Shown here piece by piece: positions 52,558 to 53,634 of a DNA stretch of 64,000 bases. Numbering within the stretch: position 1 is the stretch's first letter; each line of letters opens with the position of its first letter. A program made the translations under genes and the position numbers. Source of the DNA: Eledone cirrhosa. Lineage: Eukaryota. Location: contig OZ024743.1 of NCBI GenBank assembly GCA_964016885.1, positions 59,148,001 through 59,212,000 of the forward strand, in the 5' to 3' direction. Below the pieces are notes generated by a model. The model was not told the origin of the DNA. It ran no database searches and was given only the letters and a program-made list of their open reading frames with translations.

Positions 52558-53634
52558 TAAAAAACAAATAACGAAACGAAATTACATTTCGTTTCGTTTG
52601 TAACTCACTTTTGTATGACTGACGCTTAAACAATTAAGTTAAAAATGTACATCCACATATGTATACTGAAATACTAGTATGCATATGAATACACACACGT
52701 ATACATATGTAGATGTACCAAGTTTTTCACTGGTCACTTTACTGTGAGTGTCCAGCTATTCTGTATGTAAACACACAGACAAACCGGTTTTTAGAGTCAT
52801 ACTGGTTTTTGAGGAAACACCTTTCCTCTATTCTCCAGAAAGCCAGACAAGGAATATTGAACTAGTTTCGTTGTTGTTACAACTCATCAGCAATATTTAC
52901 CTATCTTCCGGCCTTTCTGGAGAATCGTAAAAGCACATATCGTTATATGCTTTTTCTATGAAAATTAGTAGTGGGCAGACTAATTTGCATAGAGTGTGAG
53001 TACGTACCGGTTCAACGGAGACGATAAAAAACAAATAACGAAACGAAATTACATTTCGTTTCGTTTGTAACTCACTTTTGTATGACTGACGCTTAAACAA
53101 TTAAGTTAAAAATGTACATCCACATATGTATACTGAAATACTAGTATGCATATGAATACACACACGTATACATATGTAGATGTACCAACATATGTAGATG
53201 TTACAAACGAAACGAAATGTAATTTCGTTTCGTTATTTGTTTTTTATCGTCTCCGTTGAACCGGTACGTACTCACACTCTATGCAAATTAGTCTGCCCAC
53301 TACTAATTTTCATAGAAAAAGCATATAACGATATGTGCTTTTACGATTCTCCAGAAAGGCCGGAAGATAGGTAAATATTGCTGATGAGTTGTAACAACAA
53401 CGAAACTAGTTCAATATTCCTTGTCTGGCTTTCTGGAGAATAGAGGAAAGGTGTTTCCTCAAAAACCAGTATGACTCTAAAAACCGGTTTGTCTGTGTGT
53501 TTACATACAGAATAGCTGGACACTCACAGTAAAGTGACCAGTGAAAAACTTGGTACATCTACATATGTATACGTGTGTGTATTCATATGCATACTAGTAT
53601 TTCAGTATACATATGTGGATGTACATTTTTAACT
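52558..53634. mobile_element. ORF-less HHR element: 467-nt unit (1.35 units on -, then ~0.93 unit inverted on +); retrozyme candidate
   Basis: acaaataacg at 52564 and 53031. Copies look identical by eye. HHRs at 52853-52897 (-) and 53374-53418 (+). Confidence 0.9.
53374..53418 (+). ncRNA. Intact minimal type I hammerhead ribozyme (inverse copy at 52853-52897)
   Basis: AATATTG CTGATGA GTTG TAACAA CAAC GAAA CTAG TT CAATATT. Confidence 0.92.

Follow-up and report, generated by a model that had tools for sequence, protein, structure and literature searches.

Non-LTR retrozymes of metazoans are described in two reports, that of Cervera and de la Pena 2020 (PMC7229834) and the preprint of Li, Clavereau and Pollet 2026 (10.64898/2026.07.22.740005). 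Both propose mobilisation by Penelope-like elements (PLEs) and a circular template, and insertion footprints do not figure in the accessible portions of either. There, PMC7229834 treats both what mobilises animal retrozymes and what serves as their template as proposed but unproven, and the preprint describes the retrozyme mechanism as still to be worked out. For PLEs themselves, PMC8557442 describes insertions with an inverted 5'-truncated copy, a 30–40 bp tail at one end and a bias towards microsatellites, and its accessible text calls the way in which PLEs produce such inverted, tailed insertions undefined. According to PMC11167929, AT-rich DNA is cut and extended on both strands by a PLE protein, a predicted dimer, which initiates at two internal RNA sites delimiting the tail.

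We analysed a 64,000-nt stretch of the Eledone cirrhosa genome (contig OZ024743.1, positions 59,148,001 to 59,212,000; hereafter, the window), which contains a short hammerhead-bearing element in a (TA)n microsatellite. From its sequence, we consider this locus to be probably a recent non-LTR retrozyme insertion that a PLE enzyme made by twin priming on a re-ligated RNA circle. Its features, in window positions, are as follows.

52462–52559, no strand: left (TA)n target of 49 repeats, the final bases of which overlap the arm end
52557–53188, minus strand: left arm of 632 nt (1.35 units), with its end at the long 'tail' site (locus L001)
52560–52631, minus strand: tail, 67–72 nt between two fixed 3' ends, with a 13-bp hairpin at 52570–52598
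52564–53030, minus strand: one full 467-nt unit, ORF-less, with a strong fold
52853–52897, minus strand: type I hammerhead, copy 1, with a predicted cut between 52860 and 52859
52983–52990, minus strand: octamer-like ATGCAAAT, kept in sister family B, with a putative promoter role
53189–53199, no strand: filler of 11 nt at the head-to-head junction, copied from 53171–53183
53200–53636, plus strand: right arm, 437 nt (0.94 unit), with a short-site end at unit position 396
53281–53288, plus strand: octamer-like ATGCAAAT, second copy
53374–53418, plus strand: type I hammerhead, copy 2, with a predicted cut after 53411
53635–53651, no strand: right (TA)n target

The original prediction for this DNA had described a 467-bp period, copies that look identical, the absence of a credible ORF and a type I hammerhead in each unit, and each of these descriptions held. 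The period is carried by 165 nt repeated without a mismatch (52557–52721 = 53024–53188, 100% identity), the arms are 100% complementary over 437 nt (52635–53071 versus 53200–53636), no ORF of at least 100 codons was found in the element, and one hammerhead lies in each arm, on both strands. The predicted arrangement of more than one unit plus an inverted copy in (TA)n was also found, but the arms measure just 1.35 and 0.94 units, so that the locus has two ribozymes, not three. A filler is present at the junction as predicted; its length is 11 nt (53189–53199) rather than 12 bp (53189–53200), and it was templated from sequence lying 18 nt upstream. The two outer ends of the insertion are dissimilar, with the long site on the left arm and the short site on the right arm, the latter at unit position 396 in this copy versus 399–404 in most copies. 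The unit has a predicted folding energy of −167 kcal/mol (z = −11.6 against 100 shuffles), and an Rfam search of the whole window at the gathering threshold returned no matches. A six-T variant occurs in both arms of this insertion and is absent from all other loci of the set L001–L150. The octamer-like motif is reminiscent of the snRNA-type promoter of newt satellite 2.

Two further repeats adjoin the insertion. An older, decayed PLE-like end with a hammerhead lies at 52200–52461, its TA run being the insertion target, and related pieces occur at 50922–50977 and 35600–35850. To the right of the element, at 53753–53860, a high-copy, near-perfect hairpin of 108 nt (−73 kcal/mol) lies in TA and is possibly related to 240-bp repeats at 59158–59701.

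The element belongs to a large family. An exact 31-nt core has 5,142 matches in the 3.0-Gb genome versus 0 for a reversed control, and a looser core with an identical stem III has 40,685 matches versus 38 for its control. The looser-core matches listed (100 of 40,685) comprise the 467-nt family and a sister family, B, which accounts for about half of them; by its share among these matches, family B may be the larger of the two. The unit and family B align colinearly from end to end and across the head-to-tail joint, at 77% mean column identity in a three-way alignment of the unit and two B copies, and family B retains the ACUAGU ribozyme, the octamer-like motif and the tail hairpin. Its sampled copies are the following.

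L040, 1576–2030: sister family B copy
L161, 2667–3255: sister family B copy
Window, 32592–32677: sister family B copy

The 467-nt family had been suggested to be young, a description that holds with a qualification: the window copy is itself very young, but the subfamilies diverge by up to ~10%.

Each ribozyme consists of a 7-bp stem I, a CUGAUGA core, a stem II of 4–5 bp, GAAA and a palindromic ACUAGU stem III, with a predicted cut after GUU, or after q171 (q numbers are positions along the ribozyme-sense unit, counted from 53030). When ~72 insertion haplotypes were compared at the template level, none of the 11 core sites varied versus 120 of 420 other sites (29%), or 108 of 420 when loci picked by ribozyme are set aside; the invariance of the core rests on 11 sites and has a chance of ~0.03–0.04 from the site-variation rates. 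One stem II pair was preserved through a double change in 28 insertions, the cleavage triplet varies just between GUU and GUC, and the core is conserved in family B. Judged by this variation, the hammerhead is under selection. Two ribozyme copies are predicted to co-fold into an open-core dimer (−18.4 kcal/mol versus −7.5 per misfolded monomer, in which the core is paired away), in agreement with the dimer rule given in PMC4209133. For the single predicted fold of the whole unit, 4 recurrent double changes were counted versus 21 recurrent pair-breaking variant types. In a few copies (G000:C1:218587444, and C5:81645928 and 81646256, the latter in tandem, twice at one locus) the ribozyme core is deleted between the stem I strands.

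Insertion ends were compared in 30 best-match loci and 120 further stretches chosen by ribozyme position, similarity or long end. Before counting, we dropped L093 (which duplicates L092), L058 and L059 (which overlap L042) and L148–L150 (chosen for odd ends), and L056 and L057 were merged or omitted from pair counts. The 3' ends fall at two sites, q2–7 (long) and q392–404 (short), 67–72 nt apart. Sixty-five of 72 head-to-head pairs combine one long with one short end and the other 7 have an unclassified end, with no long-long or short-short pair among the 72 and no tail-to-tail pair among the loci examined. Although 50 of these 72 pairs were selected by the long end, the rule was also obeyed by 13 of the 15 selected by ribozyme. 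TA adjoins 71 of 72 short ends, and for long ends from loci not chosen by the long end the figure is 30 of 33; among apparent single arms, 11 of 21 scored for a tiny inverted remnant. Genome-wide, plus-strand junctions between an end and TA number 1,062 for the long and 1,106 for the short site (minus-strand counts are inflated through double matches), indicating ~2,000 insertions, which are dispersed over many contigs. Pol III termination at T runs was considered as the origin of both ends and dropped, as arms often read through both runs. One single insertion, at L031:6711–7273, ends in a (CAT)n run rather than (TA)n.

This rule of two ends and one tail is the insertion signature of PLEs and supports PLE mobilisation directly, so that the original proposal of mobilisation by (TA)n-targeting PLEs is backed by 65 of 72 pairs. 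Two ORF-bearing PLE families in the same genome show like ends in TA, with tails of ~60 nt and ~43 nt, the latter figure coming from 2 of 6 copies among the matches listed.

Window 20885–23845 (also L201–L206), minus strand: abundant PLE family with a hammerhead, a TA target and a 60-nt tail
Window 62771–63226 (also L180–L200): second PLE family (8,643 candidates) that has a minimal hammerhead, its ends ~43 nt apart in TA

The first family has 26,589 candidates and open frames of up to 1,257 aa, with a C-terminal GIY-YIG domain and a Cys cluster upstream; its tail is the closest in length that we saw, making it a first candidate partner. No sequence match of the unit to these two sampled families was found (56 loci). 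A third PLE-like RT frame occurs at window 11503–12987 and 13232 (minus strand) and at L035:2909–4923; the hammerhead near it is of another type, with an AUAUAU-like stem III, recurs in many flanks and has two ends of its own.

The same end rule would be expected if the units were pLTRs of a rare autonomous PLE outside the sample and the arrays were tandem pLTR by-products. Xenopus retrozymes derive from pLTRs (10.64898/2026.07.22.740005), and just ~115 of the ~2,000 insertions were read, both of which leave room for such a source. The original prediction had named consistent flanking of a PLE ORF as the mark of a tandem pLTR, and an ORF at a constant place was found at 0 of 118 loci. PLE-like protein fragments do occur near 33 of the 118, but they belong to several families, lie 55–4,590 nt away in either orientation and are found beyond a TA run in 30 of the 33. 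This lack of a constant link suggests that the element is probably not just a pLTR. All 5' ends read join TA, an inverted arm or unrelated flank; tail read-through variants enter another unit in 100 of 100 cases among the matches listed (of 1,147); and the colinearity of family B, joint included, also speaks against pLTRs of an autonomous PLE, a source that we regard as very unlikely. Two PLE protein searches, six long PLE loci and negative-junction patterns yielded no ORF-linked unit, and Pfam gave just sub-threshold RT and GIY-YIG matches in 2 of 8 window ORFs. No ORF with RT and GIY-YIG between pLTRs was found in the element, which is not an autonomous EN+ PLE. In L146 a PLE-like end adjoins a unit in 3'-to-5' order, which we read as nesting and not as co-insertion.

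The two arms of an insertion are closely related. Unit divergence is 0.39% between opposite arms (616 pairs), 0.68% within one arm (963) and 5.0% between insertions (105,367), and arm junctions mostly show an overlap of 1–9 nt or short fillers. The longer arm is the long-end arm in 37 and the short-end arm in 28 of 65 pairs. These arms fit best as two primings on one RNA, or on RNAs of one active source. A haplotype common to both arms would also follow if the inverted arm arose by fold-back self-priming on the reverse-transcribed arm and endonuclease trimming then yielded the tail, as proposed in PMC3846280 and PMC8557442, and in some pairs (L048, L126, L130 and L140) the junction does lie at an equal hairpin position in both arms. 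However, neither arm contains the other in 20 of 65 pairs, so that fold-back copying fails there, and the remaining pairs need fold-back from either end (33 and 12). We therefore hold fold-back copying to be extremely improbable and retain two primings as the origin of the arms.

The template of these primings was continuous across the ribozyme. In loci chosen by the long end, the cut site is crossed by 89 of 124 arms and crossed twice by 38, with a mean run of 737 nt. Arm stops number 7 at q165–180 versus 3.9 expected (p = 0.10) and 16 at q165–200, just 3' of the cut, versus 9 expected (p = 0.02); we rejected run-off at the cut site, as this slight excess among 122 stops is unsupported by exact junction counts. 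Junctions exactly at the cut account for 5 of 13 genome matches versus 7 of 17 at a control site, by patterns that detect only junctions with a purine before the site, and since they are no commoner than at the control, the template is continuous there. A conserved cut together with read-through across it suggests an RNA that was cut and then re-ligated. A retrozyme with a circular or multimeric template had been proposed for this locus, and the read-through in 89 of 124 arms of an ORF-less hammerhead unit accords with that proposal; between a circular and a linear template, we favour the circle.

Variation among units also bears on the template. In 54 of 60 insertions the haplotype is unique to that insertion, a private allele is present in every unit in 6 of 20 arrays of at least three units, and private alleles occupy all 7–13 covering unit copies of L117, L106, L128 and L132. 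A single-unit bottleneck would give all units of an array a private allele at once. It is possible, though we doubt it, that PLEs instead twin-primed on a long linear transcript, for the most part uncleaved, from an array that was young or had been amplified as DNA, with the hammerhead merely freeing transcript ends and a circle unnecessary. In PMC11167929, ribozyme cutting is dispensable and uncleaved RNA is the main substrate in vitro, and PMC4209133 describes slow cutting by weak stem III ribozymes. Four variants recur in register in the opposite arm (6 cross-arm variants versus 192 singletons), as a mixed multimer template would give. Higher-order periodic variants occur in the long arrays L106, L135, L126 and one arm of L056; together with arrays of 31 units (C1:5738327–5752334) and at least 46 units (G000:C1:95621829–95643504), they indicate that DNA-level expansion is real and could supply long linear templates. 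Yet a linear template requires a separate, homogeneous, expanded source for nearly each haplotype (54 of 60 being distinct), its templates would have to be far more uniform than present arrays, given 6 cross-arm variants versus 192 singletons, and run-off at the cut site is absent in junction counts. Multimeric circles were rejected because the periodic variants are confined to one arm or do not reach all units. A period-5 deletion in L042 proved to be an alignment artefact of chunking and was masked in variant counts, and a closed 496-nt contig was set aside as circle evidence, as a DNA tandem yields such a contig too. Core spacing in arrays is 465–468, and the array of at least 46 units, with its periodic variants, looks like a retrozyme becoming a local satellite.

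Returning to the circular template, we propose that a PLE reverse transcriptase-endonuclease acts in trans, copying a 467-nt RNA circle into TA runs. Arrays would be transcribed as multimers, in which adjacent hammerheads may pair via the palindromic stem III and excise monomers. A host ligase would then circularise the monomer, in which the lone hammerhead is predicted to misfold and stay quiet. A PLE protein dimer would cut both (TA)n strands, each DNA end priming at one internal site, and both enzymes would travel round the template for ~740 nt on average, after which microhomology or a brief templated filler would link the cDNA ends. Certain long arrays expand later at the DNA level. On balance, and with some reserve, we lean towards viewing the insertions generally as records of twin-primed rolling-circle reverse transcription, in which a PLE dimer, primed by both ends of a cut TA run, starts from two fixed sites on one covalently closed RNA of 467 nt, with both enzymes following one another round this single circle.

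If true, this rolling-circle reading would identify the class of enzyme that mobilises animal retrozymes, establish the circle as the true intermediate and account for PLE inversions and tails by a single event. With ~2,000 insertions that are young, ORF-free and of private haplotype, the questions of the retrozyme mobiliser and template and of PLE inversion become countable tests, and the 467-nt RNA could be used directly in the published in vitro assay of a PLE.

Compared with EN+ PLEs (PMC8557442, PMC3846280 and PMC11167929), the family shares the head-to-head inverted 5'-truncated copy, seen here in 72 pairs, the tail at one end, defined here by two internal start sites in 65 of the 72, an AT-rich target, a minimal hammerhead and internal start sites beside a stem-loop. 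Unlike EN+ PLEs as described in those sources, it lacks an ORF, has a tail of 67–72 nt versus 30–40 and carries many complete units in each arm. Non-autonomous Chlamys PLEs, MRC1 among them, are likewise multicopy, head-to-tail and PLE-moved; as presented in PMC8557442, their 3' ends are similar to that of their autonomous partner and they belong to a clade without canonical hammerheads, whereas the 467-nt family keeps a conserved ribozyme, and no partner was found for it in the two PLE families sampled. Plant LTR retrozymes have type III hammerheads in LTRs, in contrast to the type I hammerheads in tandem units here.

The closest match is with the metazoan non-LTR retrozymes of PMC7229834 and 10.64898/2026.07.22.740005, which are ORF-less, low-GC tandem repeats with one type I hammerhead per unit, present in thousands of copies from dimers to long multimers, with a strong fold and in PLE-rich genomes. 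All of these traits recur in the family described here, whose short tandem units each contain a type I hammerhead; it has neither coding capacity nor LTR structure (PBS and PPT were not searched separately), and it is dispersed and mobile, with ~2,000 end junctions. Its unit of 467 nt compares with 170–400 in PMC7229834 and 51–972 in the preprint. Circles have been demonstrated for metazoan retrozymes in the cited papers, whereas for the 467-nt family the circle is proposed from genomic sequence. The head-to-head arms, the pair of fixed ends and the preference for (TA)n found here are absent from the accessible text of both reports, and neither 'inverted' nor 'microsatellite' is used in PMC7229834; we found no literature report of tails or head-to-head arms in retrozymes, a point on which the preprint supplements may bear. 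The element thus belongs to a known class, the non-LTR retrozymes, to which its insertion footprints add mechanistic evidence.
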